A stretch of 37,855 bases of DNA from the NCBI GenBank assembly GCA_964016885.1, contig CAXHJY010001568.1:1-37855 (forward strand). Direction: 5' to 3'. Numbering within the stretch: position 1 is the stretch's first letter; each line of letters opens with the position of its first letter. The translations under genes were made by a program, and so were the position numbers. Of the stretch, positions 3,023 to 37,139 are shown piece by piece. The stretch is from Eledone cirrhosa (taxonomy: Eukaryota). The notes under the pieces were generated by a model. That model was not told the DNA's origin. It did no database searches and saw nothing but the letters and a program-made list of their open reading frames with translations.

Positions 3023-5431
3023 ATACCCCAACATAACCTACCCCAACATAACCTACCCCAACATAACCTACCCCATCTAACCTACCACATCTAACCTACC
3101 CCAACCAACCTACCACCACATAACCTACCCCAACATAACCTACCCCAACATAACCTACCCCAACATAACCTACCCCATCTAACCTACCCCAACATAACCT
3201 ACCCCAACATAACCTACCTCAACATAACCTACCCCATCTAACCTACCCCAACATAACCTACCCCATCTAACCTACCCCAACATAACCTACCCCAACATAA
3301 CCTACCTCATCTAACCTACCTCATCTAACGATCCCCCACCTTAACCAACCCGAACATAACCTACCCCATCTAACCTACCCCAACATAACCTACCCTACCA
3401 TAACCTACCCCATCTAACCTACCCCAACTCACCTACCCATCTAACCTACCCCAACTCACCTACTCATCTAACCTACCTCATCTAACCTACCCCAACATAA
3501 CCTACCCCATCTAACCTACCCCATCTAACCTACCCCATATAACCTACCTCCATCTAACCTACCCCACCATAACCTACCCCATCTAACCTACCCCATCTTA
3601 CCTACCCCCATCTAACCTACCCCACCATAACCTACCCCATCTAACCTACCCCATCTTACCTACCCCCATCTAACCTACCCCACCATAACCTACCCCATCT
3701 AACCTACCCCCACCTTAACCTACCGCCTTCTAACCTACCCCTATTTAACCTACCCCAACATAACCTACCCCATCTAACCTACCCCACCATAACCTACACC
3801 ACCATAACCTACCCCACCATAACCTACCCCACCATAACCTACCCCATCTAACCTACCCCAACATACCTACCCCAACATAACCTACCCCAATATAACCTAC
3901 CCCAGTTAACCTACGCCATCTAACCTACCCCAATTTAACCTACCCCACCATAACCTACCCCCACCTTAACCTACCGCCATCTAACCTACCCCATATAACC
4001 TACCCCACCATAACCTACGCCATCTAACCTACCCCAACATAACCTACACCAACATAACCTACCCCATCTAACCTACCCCACCCTAACCTACCTCCATCTA
4101 ACCTACCCCAACATAACCTACCCCATCTAACCTACGCCATCTAACCTACCCCAATTTAACCTACACTAACATAACCTACCCCAACATAACCTACCCCATT
4201 TATACCTACGCCATCTAACCTACCCCCAATTTAACCTACCCCAACATAACCTACCCCATCTAACCTACCCCACCTTAACCTACCTCGATCTAACCTACCC
4301 CACCATAACCTACCCCATCTAACCTACCCCAACATAACCTACCCCATCTAACCTACCCCATCTAACCTACCCCACCTTAACCTACCCCCACCTTAACCTA
4401 CCCCAACTCACCTACCCCATCTAACCTACCCCAACATAACCTACCCCATCTAACCTACCCCAACATAACCTACCCTATCTAACCTACCTCAACATAACCT
4501 ACCTCCATCTAACCTACCCCACTTTAACCTACCCCTACCTTAACCTACCCCAACATAACCTACCCCATAATAACCTACGCCATCTAACCTACCCCAATTT
4601 AACCTACCCCAACATAACCTACCCCATCTAACCTACCCCACCATAACCTACCCCATCTAACCTACCCCAACATAACCTACCCCATCTAACCTACCCCATC
4701 TAACCTACCCCACCTTAACCTACCCCCACCTTAACCTACCCCAACTCACCTACCCCATCTAACCTACCCCAACATAACCTACCCCATCTAACCTACCCCA
4801 ACATAACCTACCCTATCTAACCTACCTCAACATAACCTACCTCCATCTAACCTACCCCACTTTAACCTACCCCTACCTTAACCTACCCCAACATAACCTA
4901 CCCCATAATAACCTACGCCATCTAACCTACCCCAATTTAACCTACCCCAACATAACCTACCCCATCTAACCTACCCCACCTTAACCTACCTGCATCTAAC
5001 CTACCCCACCATAACCTACCCCCAGCATAACCTACCCCAACATAACCTACCCCCATCTAACCTACCCCATCTAACCTACCCCAACATAACCTACCTCCAT
5101 CTAACCTACCCCAACATAACCTACCCCCATCTAACCTACCACCACCAACACCTACCCCATCTAACCTACCCCCACCTTAACCTACCCCCACCTTAACCTA
5201 CCCCAATTTAACCTACCCCAACATAACCTACCCCATCTAACCTACCCCAACATAACCTACCCCCATCTAACCTACCCCAACATAACCTACCCCACCAACA
5301 CCTACCCCACCTTAACCTACCCCCATCTAACCTACCCCAACATAACCTACACCACCAACACCTACCCCATTTAACCTACCCCCACCAACACCTACCCCAT
5401 CTAACCTACCCCACCGTAACCTACCCCACCT
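3023..5431. repeat. C-rich minisatellite, 14-16 bp unit: AACCTACCCC core plus variable 4-5 nt (AACAT/ATCT/ACCAT/ACCTT/AATTT); contains a 338-bp higher-order duplication (4288-4980)
   Basis: Continuous tandem units. Rare variants recur 338 bp apart: CCCCAACTCA at 4401/4739 and TACCCTATCT at 4471/4809. Confidence 0.95.
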
Positions 5432-5639
5432 AGACATTACAGGCCTCTCTCAGCATGTAATGTGTGATATATCTGGTAGGGGACTAGCGACTGCTATATT
5501 TACAGCTTTCCCTGTAGTACAACACATAACAACACATTTACTGCCTTTAGACATTACGCTGCTATTTTTCCGCTGTCATGCCGTAGTCTATGTCGATGTA
5601 ATATGTGTGTATAGACAGTGGGTATATATATATATATTT

Positions 5640-5716
5640 ATAGGAAAAGGTATGACCCCGACGGCAGAGCTCAAGCCGTTTCGACGGCTATTTCTAGACT
5701 AAATTAGAATTTTTAG

Positions 5717-5752: not shown

Positions 5753-5894
5753 TTTCTGATTTAGGCACAAGGCCAACAATTTTGTTGGAAGAGGGGAAAG
5801 TCGATTAAATCGACCCCAGTGCGTGACTGGTACTTTATTTTATCGACCCCGTAAGGATGAAAGGCAAAGTTAACCTCGGCGGGATTTGAACTCA
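5748..5894 (-). mobile_element. tRNA-derived SINE, 5'-truncated, with Meta-domain-like body
   Basis: Reverse complement of the copies at 9643-9831 and 11535-11716 (GCCTTTCATCCTTACGGGGTCGATAAAATAAAGTACCAGT); B box GTTCAAATC. Confidence 0.85.
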
Positions 5895-6223: not shown

Positions 6224-6328
6224 TGTGAATCCCGGGTTCAATCAGGGATAACCACAGTAGGGTACTCAATACATATATGATTTCCTTGGAATGAAACAGT
6301 TCTATTCCTGTAGAAGCCATTTCTATAT
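6224..6328. mobile_element. Family B hammerhead element, head-to-head arrangement (long 3' end on minus strand 6224-6273; partial ribozyme arm on plus strand 6277-6328)
   Basis: Both parts are homologous to 36875-37076 and 6574-6691. Confidence 0.75.
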
Positions 6329-6573: not shown

Positions 6574-6688
6574 CTGATGATTTCTCCCGAATGAAACAGT
6601 TCTAGTCCTTTTTATATTAAAAATGTATACTCTGCTATGTATTGAGTACCTTACTTACTGTGGTTACCCCCCAATTGAACCTGGGATA

Positions 6689-6691
<3 letters not shown>
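6574..6691 (+). mobile_element. Family B hammerhead element, cleavage site deleted
   Basis: CTGATGA-T-TTC-TCCC-GAA-T-GAAACAG-TTCTAGTC-CT, then GTATTGAGTACCTTACTTACTGTGGTTACC; (TA)n on both sides. Confidence 0.8.
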
Positions 6692-13610: not shown

Positions 13611-15263
<1,653 letters not shown>

Positions 15264-15896
15264 TGAATGGTTTTAAAGCGCGAAATAGCCATTCGATTTA
15301 CTTTGAACTATATTAGCAAGACATTCTAATACAGCTAATTTTGACAATTATCTCTTCACTCCGTTACTCAGCTTCCCCACAAGTTTTCTGAGGCATCATA
15401 TATCTGGTGATAGCAAGCAGTGAGAGGCACTTACTTACCATTTAGGTTCTCCTTAAACTCTCTACGTTTAACTGTTTAAGGTTTGCTCTGACCAACTCAC
15501 TGCAATTAAAGACAGATGCTGTGTTCGGTAACTGCAGCCAATCCATCTATTGTCGGATCTTTGAAAAGGATCTTTTATTGGAAATTTTTCCCCTTATGTC
15601 CTTCGCTTTTCGCTGGCTGCCATAAAGAGAGGAATGTGACGTCATCGTCGACTTCAACAGACTACAAAGAAGTGCGTGTGCATGTGAGTGTATGTGGGTG
15701 TGTGTGGGTGGGCGGGTGGGTGTGCACGCGTGTGGCTCTGCATGGCTTGAGTTTATAATATTTGGCGTTTAAGCGTGTCATGCAAAACATATGTCGATGT
15801 ATATCAAAATTGGAATGTTGGTTTATTTATACTGCTCACGTACACACACGCACACGCACACACACACACACACACGCACACACACACACGCACACA

Positions 15897-15960
<64 letters not shown>

Positions 15961-16421
15961 CACAACACTTAATACTGTAAATATACAAGCACTCACGTAC
16001 GTGCATGTACATACACAACCACGCAAAAATATGCACATACTGAAATATGGCCAGATGTGTGTGTGTTTATATGCATGTATGTATACAAATATATACATAC
16101 ATATACACAAACATATACGTATATGTGTACTTGTCTATGTTTGTATCTATCTATGTATCTCTCTCTCTATCTATGTCTATATCTATTAATCTAGCTGTCG
16201 TCTGTTCTACAGTGTGGATGTCATTCACTTCGCACAGAAGTTTTGTTCAAATTTATTGAGGAAATTTTGTGAGTTCAAACTTAATTTTGATACAATTGTG
16301 TAGCTTGACCCTCCGTCTGAACTGTCAGGCGGTGGGTCAGCTCATCTTTACCCCTCCTAGAGGTGAAAAACCTGTTTTAAAAAAAAAATTTTGTGTAAAA
16401 AATTTCAATCGTCTAACAGAA

Positions 16422-18299
16422 ATGTTAAACGCAGCGAACGAAAATAGTGGTGGGGGGACAGCGGTAAGAGTTGTAAGCTCGCACGCTTTAGTCCTCCCTT
16501 CCTTCCCAACTAACGTCATAGAGAAGGAAGGAAAAATGAAAATAAAAACGGACGAATCTGCGGAGAAAAAATTAAATGTCGAAAACAACGAAGAAAAAAA
16601 TTTTGAAAAATTCCATGACAATACTAATAACACAAACAAAGACACAACAAACAAAAAAATAACAGTTGAAAATAACATAACATCAGAAAACAAAGCAGAC
16701 GACAAGATTTCATTTGCACAGAAAACAAAGAAATCTTTGACTTATATAGCGGAAAACATTTCAGATGTGGTACGAAGGATCACGGACGCAAAACAATACA
16801 TAAGTGAAGGTGAGAATGGTATTTTATTGGTAAAAATGCCTCAAGAATTCACGAAAGACATTGAAAGCCGAACGGTCAAGTTTCGGACCATCAACAACAG
16901 TACAAAAAAACCTGAACAGCCTTCTCAAGCAGATATCAAAACAGTACTCGCAGAAGTACTGAATGAAACAACTTTCATAAGAAAAGACAGACTGTATGGA
17001 AGCCTAGCAATTATCATGAAGAACGAATCGGCGGCAAAAAAATGTGCTTTGTCACCGATTCGTTCGAAAAATTTCACCTTTTATCCATCTTATATGGGAA
17101 AAAAAACTGAACGCATATGGCTGGATGCAATGATGCCAGATGTGGACTACTGCTGGCTCATAGCTGGCTTCATCGATCCAGTGAATGACAACGTGATTTC
17201 CATTGGGAAAACCACAGGCAATGCGTTCAGTGGAACAGGTATAGAGCTGGTAGTACAAATGAAGCCTGAACGCATCGCCCAAATACCCGACAGAATCCTA
17301 TTAGAGGACCACGGGTATATAAACATTAGCGTGGAGGGGAGAAGGCCATCCTGCCATATCTGTGCAGGCAGAGGGCACCTGAAGGCCGCTTGTCCACAAC
17401 TCAACAAAAAGAAAACTCTGCTACCAACACCAGCTCCACCACCACCACCACAACAGATAAACAAACAACAAAACTCAGTCCCACCCAACCCGTCCCTCAG
17501 TAACACCACAACACCACCACAACACAAACAGTCACAACACATTACCCCAAAACAAAATACAGGCCCACCCAACCTCTCACTCAATAAAACAACACAACCA
17601 CCGCAGACACAACACACAACACAGTCTAACATAGTGACATCCATCTCCCCCACAAAGAAAACCAACACGGAAACATTACCAGCAAACATACCTCTTCCCT
17701 CCAACACTGAAGATAACCCAACGAATTCGGAGGAAGAAACGGAGTCCTTCAGACAGATTAAAAGGAAAAAAAGAAAACATGTGCAAAACACACAAGGACA
17801 AACAACCCCCACCCAAATCGCAACACAATCTAACAAAACAGAAAACACCCCTCCAGCAACAAACAAAACCAAACCTGCCCCTCCCCTCTTCGAAACACTC
17901 ACACCATCGGAAAAAAAGACATTACACTATACTTACATCAACAGAAACAATAATAAATTAAATGAACTCATATACAATAATCCTTCGGTACAAACCGAAG
18001 GTGTAAACTTTGTTTCGTCAGAAAACCACCCACATTTAAAACTAATAAAAATCCCAATGAACCTCTACCAAAAACTAAAAAAGGATTTTAAGGAGGACGT
18101 AGGACCACCCTCTGTCAAACCCATAAACCGCGTCCTACTAAAAAGCTTTCCCCCTCCCCTTCCCCTCCCCAACACAACTCCAAACACCCCAACCCCACCA
18201 CACACCGACGACCCCACACCACCACAAGACACCCCTTCACCCAACACCCCCGACCCCATGGAAGTCGTGCAACCCGAACCCCGGGAAGCGGAAAGGTAG
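16422..18299 (+). CDS. Retrotransposon ORF1 (gag-like nucleic-acid-binding protein, 625 aa from the first ATG)
   Basis: CHICAGRGHLKAAC zinc knuckle (CX2CX4HX4C), Pro/Thr-rich C-terminal half, KRKKRK basic patch, position upstream of EN-RT; the frame is open from 16269. Confidence 0.88.
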   Translation: MLNAANENSGGGTAVRVVSSHALVLPSFPTNVIEKEGKMKIKTDESAEKKLNVENNEEKNFEKFHDNTNNTNKDTTNKKITVENNITSENKADDKISFAQKTKKSLTYIAENISDVVRRITDAKQYISEGENGILLVKMPQEFTKDIESRTVKFRTINNSTKKPEQPSQADIKTVLAEVLNETTFIRKDRLYGSLAIIMKNESAAKKCALSPIRSKNFTFYPSYMGKKTERIWLDAMMPDVDYCWLIAGFIDPVNDNVISIGKTTGNAFSGTGIELVVQMKPERIAQIPDRILLEDHGYINISVEGRRPSCHICAGRGHLKAACPQLNKKKTLLPTPAPPPPPQQINKQQNSVPPNPSLSNTTTPPQHKQSQHITPKQNTGPPNLSLNKTTQPPQTQHTTQSNIVTSISPTKKTNTETLPANIPLPSNTEDNPTNSEEETESFRQIKRKKRKHVQNTQGQTTPTQIATQSNKTENTPPATNKTKPAPPLFETLTPSEKKTLHYTYINRNNNKLNELIYNNPSVQTEGVNFVSSENHPHLKLIKIPMNLYQKLKKDFKEDVGPPSVKPINRVLLKSFPPPLPLPNTTPNTPTPPHTDDPTPPQDTPSPNTPDPMEVVQPEPREAER

Positions 18300-18332
18300 G
18301 TCTCTACACTCTCCTTTGGCTCTGCCGCCCAC

Positions 18333-21300
18333 ATGGATGTGTTAAGAGTAGGATGTTTGAATGCACGTGGCCTGGGCTCAACTTGGAAGCAAGCAAAGCT
18401 TCTAAATGACCTCAGGTCATGTAGTATAAATGTAATGGTTATCTGTGAGACTCGAATCAGCGTCATGCGGCAGCTGGCCCCCACCTTCGATGACTTTGAG
18501 GTGCATGCATCTCTCTGTCAACCTGGAGGTGGGGGTGGGGTTGTCGTGCTGCTGCAAAAACACCTGGGTCTTGCCGTACAGGTTGTGCACTCGGACCCGG
18601 AGGGTCGTTTGTTGGTGCTAGACGTTGGCAGTAGTGAAAGTGCGGCCTTGAGACTGGTCGCCGTCTACTCCCCTTTCGGAGCTGAACGGCCCGACTTCTT
18701 CCAGCGTTTGGAGACTTTTCTGGGAACGTCGCGTTCCCTGCTTCTAGCGGGGGATTGGAATGACATCCTGGATGCACGTTGGGACTATGCAGGAGCATGT
18801 CCTAATAGAGGGGGGTGTAACAGCCTCAAGGGGTTACTCGACCGTTTTAACTTGGTCGATAGATATCGACTAGATTTTCCAACTGTGCCTACCTGGACTT
18901 GGAGAAACCACAGTGGTCAATCTAGATCGTACTTAGATAGATAGATAGATTCTTAGTTAGAAGTAAGGATAGGGACATATTAAGCTGTCCAGAAATGCGC
19001 ACGGTTGGCTACACGGATCACAAATTAGTGACCTGCGTGGTCAATCTCGAGAAAACACATAGACAGGGTCCCGGTTACTGGAAACTTAATTTGTCTTTAC
19101 CGGCAAAAGAGACTTACAGAAACCGGATTAGCAGATTAGTTAAGGAGAGGTTGACGGGTGCAATCGTCAACAACCGATGGTGGGCATCTCTCAAAAGAGA
19201 GATTAGAACAGAATCAATAAGTTATAGCAAGATGTTAGCTGCCAATAGGAATAGAAACGAGAAAGAATTAACAGGTAAATTAGAAGAGGCAATCAAGAGC
19301 GAAGATGTGGCCAGAGTGCTGGCATCGAGGACGGCCTTGAACCAGTTTTTCGATGCAAAGCATGAAGGCTGCGTCATTCGAAGTAAAATACGTGCTCTAG
19401 GTAATGAGGGGGCCAAAGCCGTTGGATGGGCCCGCGTGACAGAAGCTAAAAGTGGAAATCGATCCACCATCCGGTCGTTGCAAGACGAAGATGGACGAGT
19501 GATCCGGGAGCCTAAGCAGATGTGCGAGGCCTTTCAAAAGCACTTTGCCCGATTGTTCGGGGGAGGCGAGGGTCCGGGCCGGGGCGTGGATTTCGGTCCA
19601 TACCTCGACGGCCTGCCGCGTCTCTCGAACAAAGAGGCAGAGTCCTGCGAGGGACCAATCTCGGCTGATGAGATCGGAGATGCGCTGAGCCAATGCAGCA
19701 GACGCAAATCTCCAGGTCTCGATGGTATACCTTACGAACTTTATTTAGCAATGCCGGTCTTCTTCTCCGAACTCCTCGAAGCGGTCTACTGCAATTGGCA
19801 GCAGAACGGGAGAATTCCTTGTTCTGTAGCCAAGGGCGTAGTCACGCTGGTGAGGAAGGACGAGAACAAGGGGGATAGTATAAATAATTTTCGGCCCATA
19901 ACCCTGCTAAACACAGAGTTAAAGATTTTGGCCAAGGTGTTAGCAAAGAGGTTGGCGCTTGTCGTGGGTGGCCTGGTGGGAGATGCGCAGACATGTGCTA
20001 TCCCATCCAGGTCCATTCACGATAACCTCCACCTCATGCGATACATCATAGAGAGGGTTGGCAACAAACCCGGCTTCGGTGGGGCCCTGATCAACTTGGA
20101 TCAGTCTAAGGCCTTCGATAGGGTCGACCATGGTTACCTGGATGCGGTGCTAGCGGCGGCTGGGTTCGGTCCTGTTTTCAGAGGCTGGATCACTGCCCTA
20201 CATAGCAACCACATCTGTTCTAGGATCAAGGTGAACGGCTACCTTTCGAAGCCGTTCGAAATCACACGATCCATTCGACAGGGGTGCCCTCTCTCCTCCC
20301 TTCTGTACGTATTGACTCTCGAGCCTTTACTGAGGAAGTTGGAGTTGTTGCAGGGTATCCCCCTGGAACCAGGATTGAGCAAAGCGGTGTCGGCCTACGC
20401 CGATGACGTAACAGTAATGGTATCAACCGACTCGGAGATCGAGGCGATCGGTACCTTACTGGAGGAGTACGAAAGGTTGTCAGGAGCGAAACTGAACCGG
20501 GAAAAATCCATCGGGCTGCAACTCGGAACGTGGAGAGGCAAACCGATGCCTCCTGACGGTGTCGTCGGACACTGGACGGAGGGCCCGGTAAAGTTGCTTG
20601 GGGTCTGGTTTGGACCGGACCTCCAGGTGGAAAAGAACTGGAACGAGGTTACGAACAAGGTGTTTGCACTAACCCAGAAATGGGCCAAGTGTAAGCTGTC
20701 CCTAAAAGGCCGGGCGGAGGTGGCGAACATTTACATAGCGTCCGTCACTTACTACCGCCTGACTGTCGTGCCTTGCCCTAAGGAAACACTCACCACCATG
20801 GAACGCATGCTCTTCCAATTTCTTTGGAAGAAGCGTCCTCCTATGGTGAGAAGATCCATCTGCTGCCAACAACCTTCGAAAGGAGGGCTGGGGATGCCGT
20901 GGTTGATGATGCGTAGGCACGCATTAAGGCTACGGCACCTACAGGTATTCCTCACTGGTCAACCGGTGTGGGCTCCGTTCGTGAAACGAGCCTTTCCGAG
21001 ACTCGTCTCACTCACCGAGCTACAGTCCTGGGTCAAGCAAAGATCCGGAAAACTGGGAGACTGGCACACTGAGTGTGCTCAGGCGCTCAGGGCTCTCTGG
21101 CAAGCGGGCCGGGCCATCGGTGGAGAATCCACCTCATCATTCTATAGAGGGCTGGTGGCTAGCAGGGGCGATGACACCCTTGGAGAGTCGCTGGACATGG
21201 AGGAAGACGAACTGGCCAGCCTGTTCGGTAGGACTTTCGGCCCAGGACCAATGGACAACTTCCAGAAGTCACTGGCCTGGCAGTGCTACCGAGGGGCTCT

Positions 21301-21778
21301 ACCCGTTCGAGAGAGGCTCTACAGACACGGGCGCCCGGGCAGGGATCCCTCAAAAAAGATTTGCCCTAGATGCGTGCGTCACGAAGAAACCGTGGCGCAC
21401 GCATTGGTGCAATGTCCGGGCGTGGCTGATCTGTGGGGCTACGCCGAACAACTGCTGTCGCGGGTGGCGCCGATTAAATTGACCGCCGAGTCCGTGATGA
21501 CAATCAAACCGCCTCCCCTCTTCACAAAGGAAGCAAAGGCGGTTTTTCTGTGCGTAATAGCCATGTTGAAAGAGGTTGTTTGGTGGACACGATTGAAAGG
21601 TCTGAGGTCAGGCAACTTCCTCTCTGGCCATAGTCTGGTCTACTTCTTCCGATATCACTTCGGAAGAAGGATAAGAATGGAGAGAGAGGTGCTTGGCCAC
21701 AGGCAGTTTTATGAAAGGTGGGTGATAGTGGCGAGAATGGCTCGTGTAAATGGGCCTTCTCTGTATACCATCCTGTAG
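18333..21778 (+). pseudogene. ORF2: AP-endonuclease + reverse transcriptase + C-terminal zinc finger, frameshifted at 18942-18949
   Basis: EN motifs LNARGL, ET, VYSP, GDWN, YLDR, TDH; RT motifs KSPGLDG, FRPITLLN, DQSKAFDRV, RQGCPLS, YADD; CPRC..EETVAHALVQC. Removing TAGATAGA gives one 1145-aa frame. Confidence 0.92.
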
Positions 21779-23515: not shown

Positions 23516-23566
<51 letters not shown>

Positions 23567-23568
<2 letters not shown>

Positions 23569-23748
23569 CGAAGGAAATGTGGTAAGGAACCAGGTGGACC
23601 ATAACGCTCCAAAGTACTCAATACTTAGGGTAGTAGAGTGGGTAATAGGAACCAGTAAGACCCCGACGGCTGAGCTCAGGCCGTTTCATTTTAGTCCAGA
23701 ATTAGCCGTCGAAACGGCCTGAGCTCAGCCGTCGGGGTCTTACTGGTT

Positions 23749-23753
<5 letters not shown>
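23567..23753. mobile_element. Family A hammerhead element with inverted arm
   Basis: Perfect 43-bp inverted repeat 23645-23687/23711-23753; (TA)n on both sides. Confidence 0.88.
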
Positions 23754-23840
<87 letters not shown>

Positions 23841-23842
<2 letters not shown>

Positions 23843-24081
23843 TGTATAGCTTAGTGGTTAGAGCGTTGGGCTTGCAATTCAGAGGTTGTGAATTTGATTT
23901 TTGAACCGGCCGATGGCTTGTGTCCTTGGGTATGACACTTGTTTCACGTTGTTCCAAATTCACTAAGCTTTTGACACGAGTTGCGATGTCAATGTTTCCA
24001 AGTTGTTTTGGCCTCACCCTTTCTCTTGGATAACATCGGTGGCATGGAGAGGGGATACTGGTGTCCCTTGTTTCTCCTGTG

Positions 24082-24088
<7 letters not shown>
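23841..24088 (+). mobile_element. tRNA-derived SINE, CORE-like
   Basis: A box TAGCTTAGTGG, degenerate B box, TGTGTCCTTGGGTATGACACTT body. Confidence 0.7.
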
Positions 24089-24149
<61 letters not shown>

Positions 24150-24169
24150 CCCTTTATAAGACTAAATAA

Positions 24170-24330
24170 TAATAATAAATTTGAAGACTAAAATTCAAAG
24201 AGGGCTCGATAATGATAAATATATATCAAATATATAAGAACCGTAGAGCATAATATTTATTAAAATAACAGAAGATCCCGTTAAGGGTGAAAGCAGCGAT
24301 TCTTTGCTTAAACTTTAATCTGTTATTTTA

Positions 24331-24335
<5 letters not shown>
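24170..24335 (+). repeat. Dispersed repeat family C with internal inverted copy of its own end
   Basis: TTTATTAAAATAACAGA (24256-24272) is the reverse complement of 24319-24335. Confidence 0.75.
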
Positions 24336-24385
<50 letters not shown>

Positions 24386-24608
24386 GGTTTGAGGTTCAAC
24401 ACTGTATAGAGCTGGTCTATTCCATATGGTCAATCGTAATGCAATAATATAGAGAGTACTCAACGTAAGGCAGTTCAACCGTCTTTGTTTTTGTAGTTGG
24501 TGGTGCTATTACCGGCTGAGGTTGAAGGAACAGAATAGCGGTCGCCCTCGGGCCCTCGATTTTCAGCCCCATCGATTTTATCTATTACATTCACGTATTA
24601 TATTTCGA

Positions 24609-24666
24609 ATACCTGATGATATCACCGGATTCATAGAGAACCCGGTCATTGAAATGATCATAGTAT
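24609..24666 (+). ncRNA. Type I hammerhead ribozyme candidate
   Basis: ATAC-CTGATGA-T-ATcACCGGaTTC-ATAGA-GAAcCCGGTcAT-T-GAA-ATGATCAT-A^GTAT; palindromic stem III; AUA cleavage after 24662. Confidence 0.75.
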
Positions 24667-24722
24667 AATAAACCTTTCAAGGATTTACACAAATCCAGCC
24701 TCCTGTCATTTCATTATATATA

Positions 24723-24790
<68 letters not shown>

Positions 24791-25086
24791 CGGAAAAGAT
24801 TGTTTTGGTAAAAACAGGAGTAAGCAGGAGAAAGCTCTCAACAATCGTTTTTAGTTACGATGGAGAATTCTATAAAAATAACAAAATAAGATGCTGAGGT
24901 TACATATATCGTTTAATCATAATAATTATTTCCACGGTTCTCCATGCAATCGAGATGTCCTTCGTGTATTTGCATATCAGCAATTGAAAAGACCAATGGA
25001 AACATTGTTTCCTTGTTTCGATTCTACTCCACACGATAAGCGAGTGAGTTCGGATCTTGTCGGTCATTTACAATATATATATATAA

Positions 25087-25287
25087 AACAGCGATGAACT
25101 GGACTCCGCCTGGCGGTAAACGGAGGCGGGGTTGCCCAAGGATCACCTGGCGACGACCGTTCCGGAAGGACGTGATGGCAGCCAACATCACCTGGCACGA
25201 TCTTGAAAAAGTTGCCGCTGATCGTGACCGTTGGCGAATACTTACAGCTCGGTGCGCCGAACGGTGCGGAAGAATCTAAGACTATCA
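25087..25287 (+). mobile_element. RTE-clade non-LTR retrotransposon 3' fragment
   Basis: WTPPGGKRRRGCPRITW...W...AADRDRWR...C matches the typical RTE ORF C-terminus; stop followed by a very short tail. Confidence 0.8.
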
Positions 25288-25596
25288 TATATATATATAT
25301 ATATATTCTTACAGAAAAATATGTTAGGCTTCTACATAAACTGGAAACATTCTCCCAACTTGTAGAAAACTTATAATGAAACAATTGTTTGGAAAGAGAG
25401 ATGTATTTTATTCTAATTATATCTCATATAAAATAATACAACTGGCTTTCCACAAAATACATATAATTAGCACCCCAAACACAAAATTGGGATTATACTA
25501 ACGTATACCCTAATGTTTGTTGAGTGAGATGGTTACCAGTCAGAGTTTAGCTTAAAGCTTTCTCTGTTGTTGTATTAAACATATATATATATATAT

Positions 25597-25786
25597 AACG
25601 AAGGAAATGTGGTAAGGAACCAGGTGGACCATAACATACCAAAGTACTCAATACTTAGGGTAGTAGAGTGGGTAATAGGAACGAGTAGGACCCCGACGGC
25701 TGAGCTCAACCCGTTTCGACGGCTAATTCTGGAATTAGCCGTCGAAACGGCTTGAGCTCAGCCGTCAGGGTCCTACTCGTTCCTAT
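25597..25786. mobile_element. Family A hammerhead element with inverted arm
   Basis: 55-bp inverted repeat 25675-25729/25732-25786, 2 mismatches, 2-bp spacer; (TA)n on both sides. Confidence 0.88.
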
Positions 25787-34330: not shown

Positions 34331-34371
<41 letters not shown>

Positions 34372-34428
34372 ACTATGTAAGTATGTATATATATATATAT
34401 ATATATAATATATATATATATATACTAT

Positions 34429-34464
<36 letters not shown>

Positions 34465-34996
34465 AATATGCATATATATATATATATACCTCTATGTAAG
34501 TATGTATATATATATATATATATATACATGAGTCTATATATGTGTATATATATATATGTTTGTATATATATATATATGTATATATATACATGTGTCTATA
34601 TATATGTATATATATGTGTGTATATATATATATGTATATGTATATATATATATGTGTGTATATATATATATATGTATATATATATGTGTGTATATTATAT
34701 ATATGTATGTATATATATATATATGTGTATATATATGTATATATATATTATGTGTATATATATGTATATATATATATGTGTATATATATGTGTATATATA
34801 TGTGTATATATATATGTATATATATATGTGGATATATATATGTATATATATATGTATATATTTAAGTATATATATGTATATATATATGTATATATTTAAG
34901 TATATATATGTATTATATATATATGTATATATATATATATGTAAATATATATGTATATATATATATTATATATATGTAAATATATATATATATGTG

Positions 34997-35029
<33 letters not shown>

Positions 35030-35032
35030 GTA

Positions 35033-35071
<39 letters not shown>

Positions 35072-35346
35072 ATATATATATATATGTATATATATATGTA
35101 TATATGTATATATATATATATATGTGTATATATATATATATGTACTATATATGTATATATATATATGTGTATATATATTTATATATAATGTGTATATACA
35201 TATGTGTATGTGTATGTGTATATATATATATATATGTGTATATATATATGTGTGTATGTGTATATATATATATATATATATGTGTATATATATATGTGTG
35301 TATGTGTATATATATATATATATATATGTGTATATATATATGTGTG

Positions 35347-35382
<36 letters not shown>

Positions 35383-35394
35383 ATATATATATGC

Positions 35395-35440
<46 letters not shown>

Positions 35441-35493
35441 ATATTTATATGTATATATATATATGTATATTTATAAGTGTATATATATATATG

Positions 35494-35584
<91 letters not shown>

Positions 35585-36134
35585 TGTGTATATATATATA
35601 TGCATAATATATATATATGTGTATATATATATATGCATATATATATGTGTATATATATATATGCATATATATATATGTGTATATATATATATGCATATAT
35701 ATATGCGTATATATATATATATATGTGTATATATAATATATATATATGTGTATATATATATATATATGTATATATATATGTATATATATATGTGTATCAT
35801 ATATATATGTGTAATATATATATATATGTATATATATATATGTGTATATATAATATATGTGTATATATATATATGTATATATATATGTGTATATATATAT
35901 ATGTATATATATATGTGTATATATATATATGTATATATATTATGTATATATATATATGTATATATATATGTGTATATATATTATATATATGTATATATAT
36001 ATGTATATATATATATGTATATATATATGTGTATATATATATATGTGTATATATATATATGTATATATATATGTGTATATATATATATGTATATATATAT
36101 GTGTATATATATATATGTATATATATATATATGC

Positions 36135-36166
<32 letters not shown>

Positions 36167-36232
36167 TTCTGAGTGTATGTATGCATATAAGTATATGTAT
36201 TTATATGTGTATATATGTAAATACATAAATAT
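34320..36232. repeat. ~1.9-kb (TA)n/(TATG)n tract
   Basis: Direct reading of the sequence. Confidence 0.95.
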
Positions 36233-36864: not shown

Positions 36865-36961
36865 TATATATATAGTACGTTATTCCGGGTTGAATCGGAG
36901 GTAACCACAGTAAGTAAGGTACTCAATACATTGCAGAGTATAAAAGTTTCAATATAGATGA

Positions 36962-37010
36962 GATTCTACAGGACTAGAACTGTTTCATTCTTTAGAAATC
37001 ATCAGGAATC
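36962..37010 (-). ncRNA. Type I hammerhead ribozyme candidate (mirror copy)
   Basis: Exact reverse complement of 37017-37065. Confidence 0.8.
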
Positions 37011-37016
37011 CCTGAT

Positions 37017-37065
37017 GATTCCTGATGATTTCTAAAGAATGAAACAGTTCTAGTCCTGTAGAATC
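37017..37065 (+). ncRNA. Type I hammerhead ribozyme candidate
   Basis: GATTC-CTGATGA-T-TTC-TAAA-GAA-T-GAA-ACAG-TTCTAGTC-CTGT-A^GAATC; GUA cleavage after 37060. Confidence 0.8.
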
Positions 37066-37139
37066 TCATCTATATTAAATATATATATATATATATATTG
37101 GTTTATGGCTTCGATCTCCTCCCCCTGATGTGCGTTTTA

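Follow-up and report, generated by a model that had tools for sequence, protein, structure and literature searches.

Head-to-head Penelope-like insertions in (TA)n tracts of Eledone cirrhosa join one long to one short end, consistent with priming from both nicked target strands

Introduction

How does a retrotransposon come to leave a palindrome whose two arms end at different but recurrent points? The question is raised by a 37,855-base contig of Eledone cirrhosa (CAXHJY010001568.1, assembly GCA_964016885.1), here called the window and taken as a whole, in which short head-to-head insertions lie in (TA)n tracts of a 3.0-Gb genome where TA and other simple repeats are abundant. The original prediction described four such insertions from two families, A and B, and proposed that both nicked strands of the target prime reverse transcription at two defined RNA sites. 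The present analysis suggests that they are 5'-truncated insertions of Hydra-clade Penelope-like elements (PLEs), and that both nicked strands prime on one RNA, one at a short and the other at a long site. To this reading we give a probability of roughly 0.6.

Insertions in the window

Positions along an arm are numbered from the predicted hammerhead ribozyme cut, +1 being the base immediately 3' of it. All four insertions have the head-to-head layout that had been claimed, with one long and one short arm. The first A insertion has a minus-strand long arm at 23567-23687, running from +98 to -22 (tail, helix III and GAAA, the 5' half of the hammerhead being absent), and a plus-strand short arm at 23690-23753, from -43 to +20, which matches the long arm exactly over the 43 nt compared. 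Two extra bases separate the arms, and (TA)n target tracts flank the insertion on the left (23520-23566) and right (23754-23840). In the second, a minus-strand long arm (25597-25735, +98 to -40) and a plus-strand short arm (25732-25786, -34 to +20) overlap in 4 nt of microhomology at the junction and show 2 differences in 55 nt.

The B insertion at 36875 consists of a minus-strand long arm with a complete type I hammerhead core (36875-37010, +92 to -43), 6 inserted bases (37011-37016) and a plus-strand short arm (37017-37079, -43 to +19). In the fourth insertion, the minus-strand long arm belongs to a diverged B subfamily (6224-6275); it holds the tail alone, stopping short of the ribozyme as had been described, and has no overlap with the plus-strand B short arm (6277-6328, -35 to +15). 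The long ends were correctly placed at 98 nt past the cut in A and 92 nt in B, as was the A short end at 20 nt. The B short end, given as about 16 nt, is instead a range rather than one point, with clusters at +15, +19 and +22; the short arm at 36875, assigned to about +16, in fact reaches +19.

Solo copies are also present. A diverged A copy with TA on both flanks (5640-5712, minus strand, 5' end at -52) shares the short end at +20, as expected, and another A copy, absent from the original prediction, has the long end and lies within a long TA tract (13611-13741, minus strand, 5' end at -32). A solo B copy has the long end (6574-6689, plus strand, 5' end at -38), and an A long arm is cut off by the contig end (37768-37855, minus strand). 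Every A arm in the window is missing the 5' half of the core, so none of them is a whole ribozyme.

Pairing of long and short ends

Exact matches to a core word number 35,545 for A and 32,575 for B genome-wide, with 0 for the reversed controls. Loci were sampled around each of the 100 A places that were listed and around most of the 100 for B, mostly in the first 23 Mb of contig 1 (947 kb once merged), and were chosen via the core word, independently of the ends. A further 29 loci, chosen by likeness to the whole palindrome, were kept out of the A frequencies and used just in a table of 85 A junctions and as background in the B counts. A third family, C, turned up in chimeric loci, with an open reading frame (ORF) comparable to that of the A parent, just 314 exact core matches and few tiny stubs.

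A count of end positions in this sample, of the kind that the original prediction had called for, shows that the ends are not random: when each arm is measured as far as the first simple repeat, 158 of 168 in family A stop within +13 to +25 or +96 to +104. The two classes are also coupled. All 50 head-to-head A pairs with both cores combine one long with one short end, against about 49% expected with independent ends (p 4e-16). One apparent long+long A pair in a BLAST-based pairing (71 of 72 mixed) came from an alignment that ran across two adjacent insertions, and the anchor-based count was used. Among B head-to-head pairs, 38 of 42 are long plus short by tail motif. The rule extends beyond the stubs, because kilobase insertions obey it as well: one long and one short end were found in 13 of 13 kilobase inverted A insertions, drawn from 20 regions selected by ORF end, and in all 13 inverted C insertions whose two ends could be seen (p 1.2e-4 vs 0.5 in each family; one more C insertion had an interrupted arm). 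The C end classes lie at +49 to +60 and +156 to +168, and the tails measure about 78 nt in A, 70-77 nt in B and 110 nt in C. The inverted form is common, not obligatory. Solo C insertions favour the short over the long end, about 25 to 5 by eye (L171-L258), and one C copy (L190:6147, minus strand) has its 5' end at +56, two bases past the short start, straight after TA.

A bulged hairpin, CTC...TWGAG, lies 4-7 nt downstream of both A ends, at +27 and +105; the spacing of 78 nt equals the tail length. The same hairpin occurs near both C ends, at +58 and +171, and none was found in the 3.3-kb A and 2.7-kb C bodies. At the short ends of C, 10 of 40 have extra (TC)k where the RNA reads UCUC, compared with 84 of 5,628 TA-run ends in the sample (p 5e-10), and no (TC)k tract lies on the far flank in the four inverted insertions with (TC)k short ends. 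The extra (TC)k looks like stutter at initiation. Tracts of up to about 18 (TC) units lie between the element end and the TA tract in C (L195:6852, L247:1530) and at some A and B ends, and the long ends of a B subfamily often pass into (CA)k or (CT)k. Repeat addition at initiation is a possible origin of these end repeats.

Parent elements and clade

The original prediction had pointed to autonomous Penelope-like parents with a GIY-YIG endonuclease (EN) and a reverse transcriptase (RT), of the Naiad or Neptune type, with the families as their pseudo-long terminal repeats (pLTRs). Such parents were found, with A and B as pLTRs, although by their motifs they belong to the Hydra clade: A and B appear to be the ribozyme-bearing ends (pLTR plus tail) of two Hydra-clade elements. 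The A parent, traced starting from locus L055, is a 3,542-bp tandem unit (loci L209-L210) with a 786-codon open frame whose first Met is codon 68, and the B end reads through into a comparable second ORF. Tandem units measure 3.5 kb in A and 3.0 kb in C, and partial tandems were found too. The A end reads through into the ORF of the 3,542-bp unit. The stretch between short and long end is the PLE tail, which in these elements forms the beginning of the following tandem unit.

The A, B and C proteins are 41-49% identical to one another, and the best 120 protein homologues are mostly 38-43% identical. A motif scan found RW[KR] (RWR in A and B, RWK in C), DKT, YRDD, CxCx5C, a C-terminal GIY-YIG, CxxC and CxH in all three ORFs. 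The features of EN-bearing (EN+) PLEs are likewise present: a single RT/GIY-YIG ORF, tandem pLTRs, a predicted pLTR hammerhead, and an inverted 5'-truncated copy with a one-sided tail. According to the available text of PMC8557442, the Hydra clade is defined by the RWK motif, a change from DKG to DKT, the CxCx5C linker, CxxC and CxH after GIY-YIG, a C-terminal EN, and the absence of an IFD and of a CCHH motif in the EN; its elements carry hammerheads and target (TA)n, one octopus family (Hydra-1_Obim) is listed, and Penelope-13_HM, also of this clade, is listed with a 5'-truncated inverted copy. Judged by the motifs that they carry and by their (TA)n targeting, A, B and C appear to belong to this clade. 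By eye, no CCHH cysteine pair is evident inside the GIY-YIG core of the A, B and C ORFs, although no formal scan was made. In Pfam, a C fragment gave only a sub-threshold GIY-YIG match (E 0.0012), and the complete A and C ORFs yielded no informative match.

Several other identities were considered and rejected. Naiad is contradicted by the C-terminal rather than N-terminal EN, by DKT rather than DKA and by the presence of hammerheads, and Neptune, a first guess at the clade, by CxCx5C and DKT instead of a CX2-5CxxC linker and DKG. A GIY-YIG sequence upstream of A in loci L057 and L059 belongs to family C rather than to an A parent; these chimeric loci hold a C body followed by an A end, with the switch in L057 at the TATA-like box of C. 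Non-LTR retrozymes are non-coding tandem units with complete hammerheads, whereas A and B are part of coding elements and the A arms in the window lack half of the core.

Among 11 diverse B copies aligned, a predicted hammerhead cut after GUA gives 95.8% paired cells and two compensated pairs, and the alternative GUC register was rejected at 58.7%. Eleven A copies fit a type I fold with 90.0% paired cells, three compensated pairs in a long helix II and a U3-A8 core in 9 of 11; these pair counts are inflated by kinship of the copies and bear on register, not on activity. The cut sites used in the original prediction fit the folds of both families, its B distances of 92 and 16 nt already relying on the GUA site. 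In the A pLTR hammerhead (for example at L210:4790-4895, minus strand), the U3-A8 core reads UUGANAA, with N variable, and helix II spans about 60 nt. Core changes in some A copies probably inactivate the predicted hammerhead, and most A stubs are without half of the catalytic core. None of the A, B and C hammerheads matches the listed Hydra-1_Obim motif. No hammerhead family appears among 150 of 310 Rfam matches listed, which include only microsatellite-driven microRNA (miRNA) matches, none at gathering score, and thermodynamic folds of ribozymes and tails were no better than shuffles (z about 0).

Origin of the two arms

Do the two arms of an insertion derive from one template? A 4-base diagnostic haplotype is common to both arms in 41 of 50 A pairs, against a shuffled mean of 10.4 and maximum of 21, although at least 5 A variants are common in the sample; in B, 20 of 42 pairs share a haplotype, against 2.1 when shuffled. 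The arms of one insertion therefore appear to come from one source. Which arm reaches further is independent of its end type. In small A pairs the long arm is deeper in 20, the short arm in 22 and neither in 10 (n=52), and the short arm is deeper in 9 of 13 kilobase A and 6 of 13 C insertions. Arms without overlap were found in 6 of 71 A pairs, 3 of 46 B pairs, the insertion at 6224 and one C locus (L232).

The inner junctions are variable, as had been claimed, with overlaps of 0-6 nt or short inserts: 45 of 52 unselected A junctions are distinct, and the recurrent ones fall at a built-in 4-nt microhomology. The table of 85 A junctions comprises 11 blunt joints, overlaps of 1 nt (16 junctions), 2 nt (6) and 4 nt (18), 23 junctions with 1-7 inserted bases, and 11 with longer gaps that partly reflect subfamily divergence. 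One further locus (L224:142-170) has a 27-base junction insert that is a piece of the tail from just downstream of the short start site. Could the small palindromes be units copied whole, like miniature inverted-repeat transposable elements (MITEs), or solo copies rearranged later? They have the appearance of MITEs in TA targets, and the few recurring junctions would suit copying of a unit, yet most junctions are unique, those that recur have the microhomology to explain them, and kilobase coding insertions obey the same end rule. We regard this explanation as improbable.

Fold-back of a single first strand is a more serious contender. In its simple form it is excluded, because variants are shared, either arm may reach deeper and some arms do not overlap. 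A first strand started at the long site would always give the deeper long arm, at odds with the observed 20:22, and a first strand begun at the short site would offer nothing from which the tail could be copied. A second form joins the self-priming of PMC3846280 to the 'EN-mediated resolution' of PMC8557442, as these appear in the available texts: a self-primed hairpin with equal arms, from either of which the endonuclease then trims the tail. It has the standing of a reading in print, shared variants follow from it automatically, it accounts for one tail per insertion, and the 18 junctions with 4-nt overlap suit it. Nevertheless, folding back needs pairing and a loop, whereas the table holds 11 blunt joints, 16 with an overlap of 1 nt and 23 with a short insert. 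Nor can it produce non-overlapping arms such as those at 6224, and it escapes the expectation of one invariably deeper end class only through the trimming. The extra (TC)k at short ends points to a start of synthesis there, one hairpin type follows both ends, and RT starts at both tail boundaries in vitro, as reported in the available text of PMC11167929. Fold-back with trimming is thus an unlikely source of these insertions.

Two-strand priming could also use two RNAs from the same source locus, held in one asymmetric complex that forces a short and a long start. The kilobase overlaps of arms would then need no strand displacement, the arms of a few A pairs are unlike at several positions of the haplotype (2 of 50, for instance, match other common variants), and helix III has a palindromic loop, a feature of hammerheads for which dimer formation has been proposed (PMC4209133, available text). 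However, each RNA would carry both sites, so that same-end pairs would be expected barring an extra rule, and 0 of 50 were seen in A. The arms are nearly always of one variant despite the number in circulation, and the non-overlapping arms fit a single molecule. This leaves the use of two RNAs doubtful, if somewhat less so than trimmed fold-back.

Where the arms stop

The 5' ends of stub arms pile up at -34 to -44 in A and -37 to -45 in B, forming a wall near -45. Both arm ends lie between -50 and -20 in 49 of the 71 A pairs and in 41 of the 46 B pairs, and the ribozyme cut is the end point of just one A long arm out of 71. The two complementary DNAs (cDNAs) do not need the structured ribozyme, near which the original prediction had them join, as kilobase insertions join 100 to 3000 nt upstream. 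The wall also tracks no ribozyme element, since it stands at the 5' edge of helix I in B and within the helix II loop in A. The long arm is the one that stops earlier in 22 versus 10 A pairs (p 0.05) and 8 versus 7 B pairs, a comparison left unused as it is biased by the invisibility of very short short-arms.

Is the wall instead the 5' end of the RNA? Compared with promoter consensus sequences, a TATA-like box lies 29-31 nt upstream of the B wall and is kept across B subfamilies, and the A wall stands at a TYAGTY motif kept across A subfamilies. TATA and initiator (Inr)-like motifs are noted in a pLTR in the available text of PMC3846280. The pile-up at -34 to -45 is more in keeping with the 5' end of an RNA than with arrest at a helix or at the cleavage site, and we put at about even odds that tiny A and B copies stop by run-off at the RNA 5' end, about 40-45 nt upstream of the ribozyme cut. 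RNA from the predicted A start site, which lies inside helix II, would lack half of the ribozyme at its 5' end. Against run-off, no such crowding of ends is seen at the TATA-like site of family C, the TATA-like box at -67 is missing from diverged A subfamilies, and arm 5' ends show no clear cap-G signal, in a test confounded by microhomology.

Support from raw reads

Palindromes next to long TA tracts assemble poorly, and no reads were seen across the window's own four junctions, which raises the possibility of an assembly fold-back artefact. The original prediction had suggested that the palindromes be confirmed in long reads. Raw restriction-site-associated DNA (RAD) reads from three other samples, compared with the A pLTR, contain TA-joined ends at +100 (8,198, 8,918 and 11,517 reads) and at +20 (3,176, 2,772 and 2,771 reads). 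Strand-switch joints with one side at -39 to -44 are present in tens of reads each, from few start points. Most RAD reads stop at AATT at -33, probably the library cut site, so that just a minority extend across a junction. Contigs from a different run show a summed depth that drops about 13-fold past -45 and more than 300-fold past +100. The confirmation covers family A rather than the window junctions. Together with point changes between arms and an end rule specific to each family, the presence of both A ends and of strand-switch joints away from the AATT site makes an artefact very improbable.

A model of double priming

Priming of both strands at two RNA sites is our best reading and a well-supported one, because pairing is strict in three families, arms can be non-overlapping, the stutter at short ends is template-like, and there is an in vitro precedent (PMC11167929, available text); it also allows either arm to reach deeper. 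This part of the original prediction is upheld, as a reading of inserted copies. Both strands of the (TA)n target would be nicked, and each would prime reverse transcription on a single RNA, one starting at the short and the other at the long site, in each case just upstream of a small hairpin that would position one RT-endonuclease unit. The last TA bases of the primer may pair with UAU or UA in the RNA at the start. The trailing RT, from the long start, would either halt behind the leading RT, giving non-overlapping arms, or displace the leading cDNA and recopy the same stretch, giving overlapping ones. End joining would then unite the two cDNA ends. For the tiny copies, start sites near the RNA 5' end would be used on uncleaved RNA, and both cDNAs would run off at the promoter start in the pLTR.

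A number of points weigh against this proposal. Four of 42 B pairs are without a tail motif on both arms (one with a deletion in its long arm, one apparently short+short in CA/TG repeats and two unclear), and about 40 short A and 19 short B arms are unpaired in the sample. The 18 junctions with 4-nt overlap are also what fold-back would produce, and gene conversion from one arm to the other, or two RNAs transcribed at one locus, could likewise give arms of the same variant. Family B has no matching second hairpin (one at +29 in one copy only, and a different stem at +99), and the hairpin motif was defined after these sequences had been viewed, so that its shuffle values flatter. The (TC)k could stem partly from later slippage or compound targets. 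In the available text of PMC11167929, an anole protein showed no start-site difference between strands in vitro and primed without DNA homology, and coupling was not measured. The evidence base as a whole consists of inserted copies.

A more ambitious version can be offered tentatively. Double priming may be programmed, with two RT-EN units seated on twin hairpins of one RNA, one nicked (TA)n strand for each, displacement of the leading cDNA by the trailing unit, and a telomerase-like stutter at the start that adds repeat units. If so, one reaction distinct from the target priming of long interspersed nuclear elements (LINEs) might lie behind inverted copies with their one-sided tails, the mass of tiny palindromes and some of the microsatellite load of the genome.

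Other features

Outside these insertions, the window holds a near-intact LINE-type retrotransposon on the plus strand (16260-21775), in which a 679-codon frame without a Pfam match is followed by an endonuclease frame (PF03372, 214 codons) and an RT plus zf-RVT frame (945 codons) that meet near 18941. Three stretches (3024-5432, 13740-15264 and 34334-36232) consist of C-rich satellite with 15-, 29- and 44-bp units and very long TA tracts. SINE-like (short interspersed nuclear element) words at 5856, 9736 and 11621 mark copies of a short interspersed repeat, which may resemble octopus SINEs. Elsewhere in the genome, a B short arm carried as a passenger by a larger repeat occurs many times on contig 1, with the same sequence on either side (L061, L067-L069, L075, L083). 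In a multi-unit insertion, a 55-bp segment of the A ORF is repeated head to tail about 65 times right at the inversion junction (L211:171-3742), as if RT had repeatedly slipped back.

Comparison with known systems

The twin priming of L1, reportedly described by Ostertag and Kazazian in 2001, is said to involve a second target strand that primes on the same RNA, at a site of chance annealing, and to give head-to-head inversions with short junction microhomology and arms that do not overlap. In the present families the two start sites are fixed and the arms for the most part overlap, in some cases by kilobases; just 6 of the 71 A pairs and 3 of the 46 B pairs are without overlap, and L1-type twin priming was rejected. 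The layout is stereotyped, as the original prediction held, although it differs from L1 twin priming and was already known for PLEs. An inverted 5'-truncated copy with a 30-40-bp tail at one end is described in the Fig. 2 legend of PMC8557442 and in PMC3846280; in the available texts the tail is treated as optional, or as commonly confined to one side, and the preferred explanation is antisense self-priming in PMC3846280 and resolution by the endonuclease in PMC8557442. The A, B and C insertions share with this general layout the head-to-head copy, the one-sided tail and the TATA and Inr-like pLTR motifs. They differ in that their tails are longer, long+short pairing has been counted and is near absolute, and simple fold-back fails.

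The origin of tandem and inverted PLE insertions is named as an open question in PMC8557442. The published guesses, self-priming and endonuclease resolution, are untested, and the counts from tens of thousands of young copies exclude simple fold-back. Double priming makes sharp predictions for the existing in vitro system: each event should pair a short start with a long one, the two arms should derive from one RNA, and a hairpin should set each start. As PLE RTs are the sister group of telomerase, start-site stutter would, if true, bear on the origin of repeat addition and on microsatellite-rich genomes. For annotation, the stubs mimic MITEs and miRNA hairpins and are better recorded as Penelope debris.

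Likeness to the Hydra clade of Craig et al. 2021 (PMC8557442) includes the single ORF, its motifs, the C-terminal GIY-YIG, the type I hammerhead and the (TA)n target. In contrast to the listed elements, A, B and C have hammerheads unlike that of Hydra-1_Obim and huge numbers of 100-200-bp stubs, and in A a long helix II accompanies the U3-A8 core. Schistosoma PLE hammerheads are alike in their opposite-strand pairs 100-700 bp apart and their U3-A8 core (available texts of PMC4209133 and bioRxiv 10.64898/2026.07.22.740005). Animal non-LTR retrozymes, as available accounts describe them, are unlike A and B, which are ends of coding elements and, in most A stubs, lack half of the catalytic core.

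The closest functional parallel concerns PAc, a Poseidon protein of Anolis (Frangieh et al. 2024, PMC11167929), which nicks and extends both strands and, on uncleaved RNA, uses two internal RT starts that bound the tail. PAc shares with the present model these two start sites, the nicking and extension of both strands, the uncleaved RNA and a predicted dimer. It belongs to another clade, shows no strand bias in site use and primes without homology, whereas A, B and C ends merge with TA and shift with the flanking repeat; the available text of that paper does not link the two sites to inverted insertions. A literature search, in which key older subscription papers were not covered, found no statement of strict long+short coupling or of a two-site double-priming model. 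Going by the available texts, already in print are the inverted copy with one-sided tail, opposite-strand hammerheads, the U3-A8 core, Hydra elements in (TA)n and the two RT starts. In summary, these are elements of a known kind, for which the proposed mechanism, as read from their inserted copies, is probably right.

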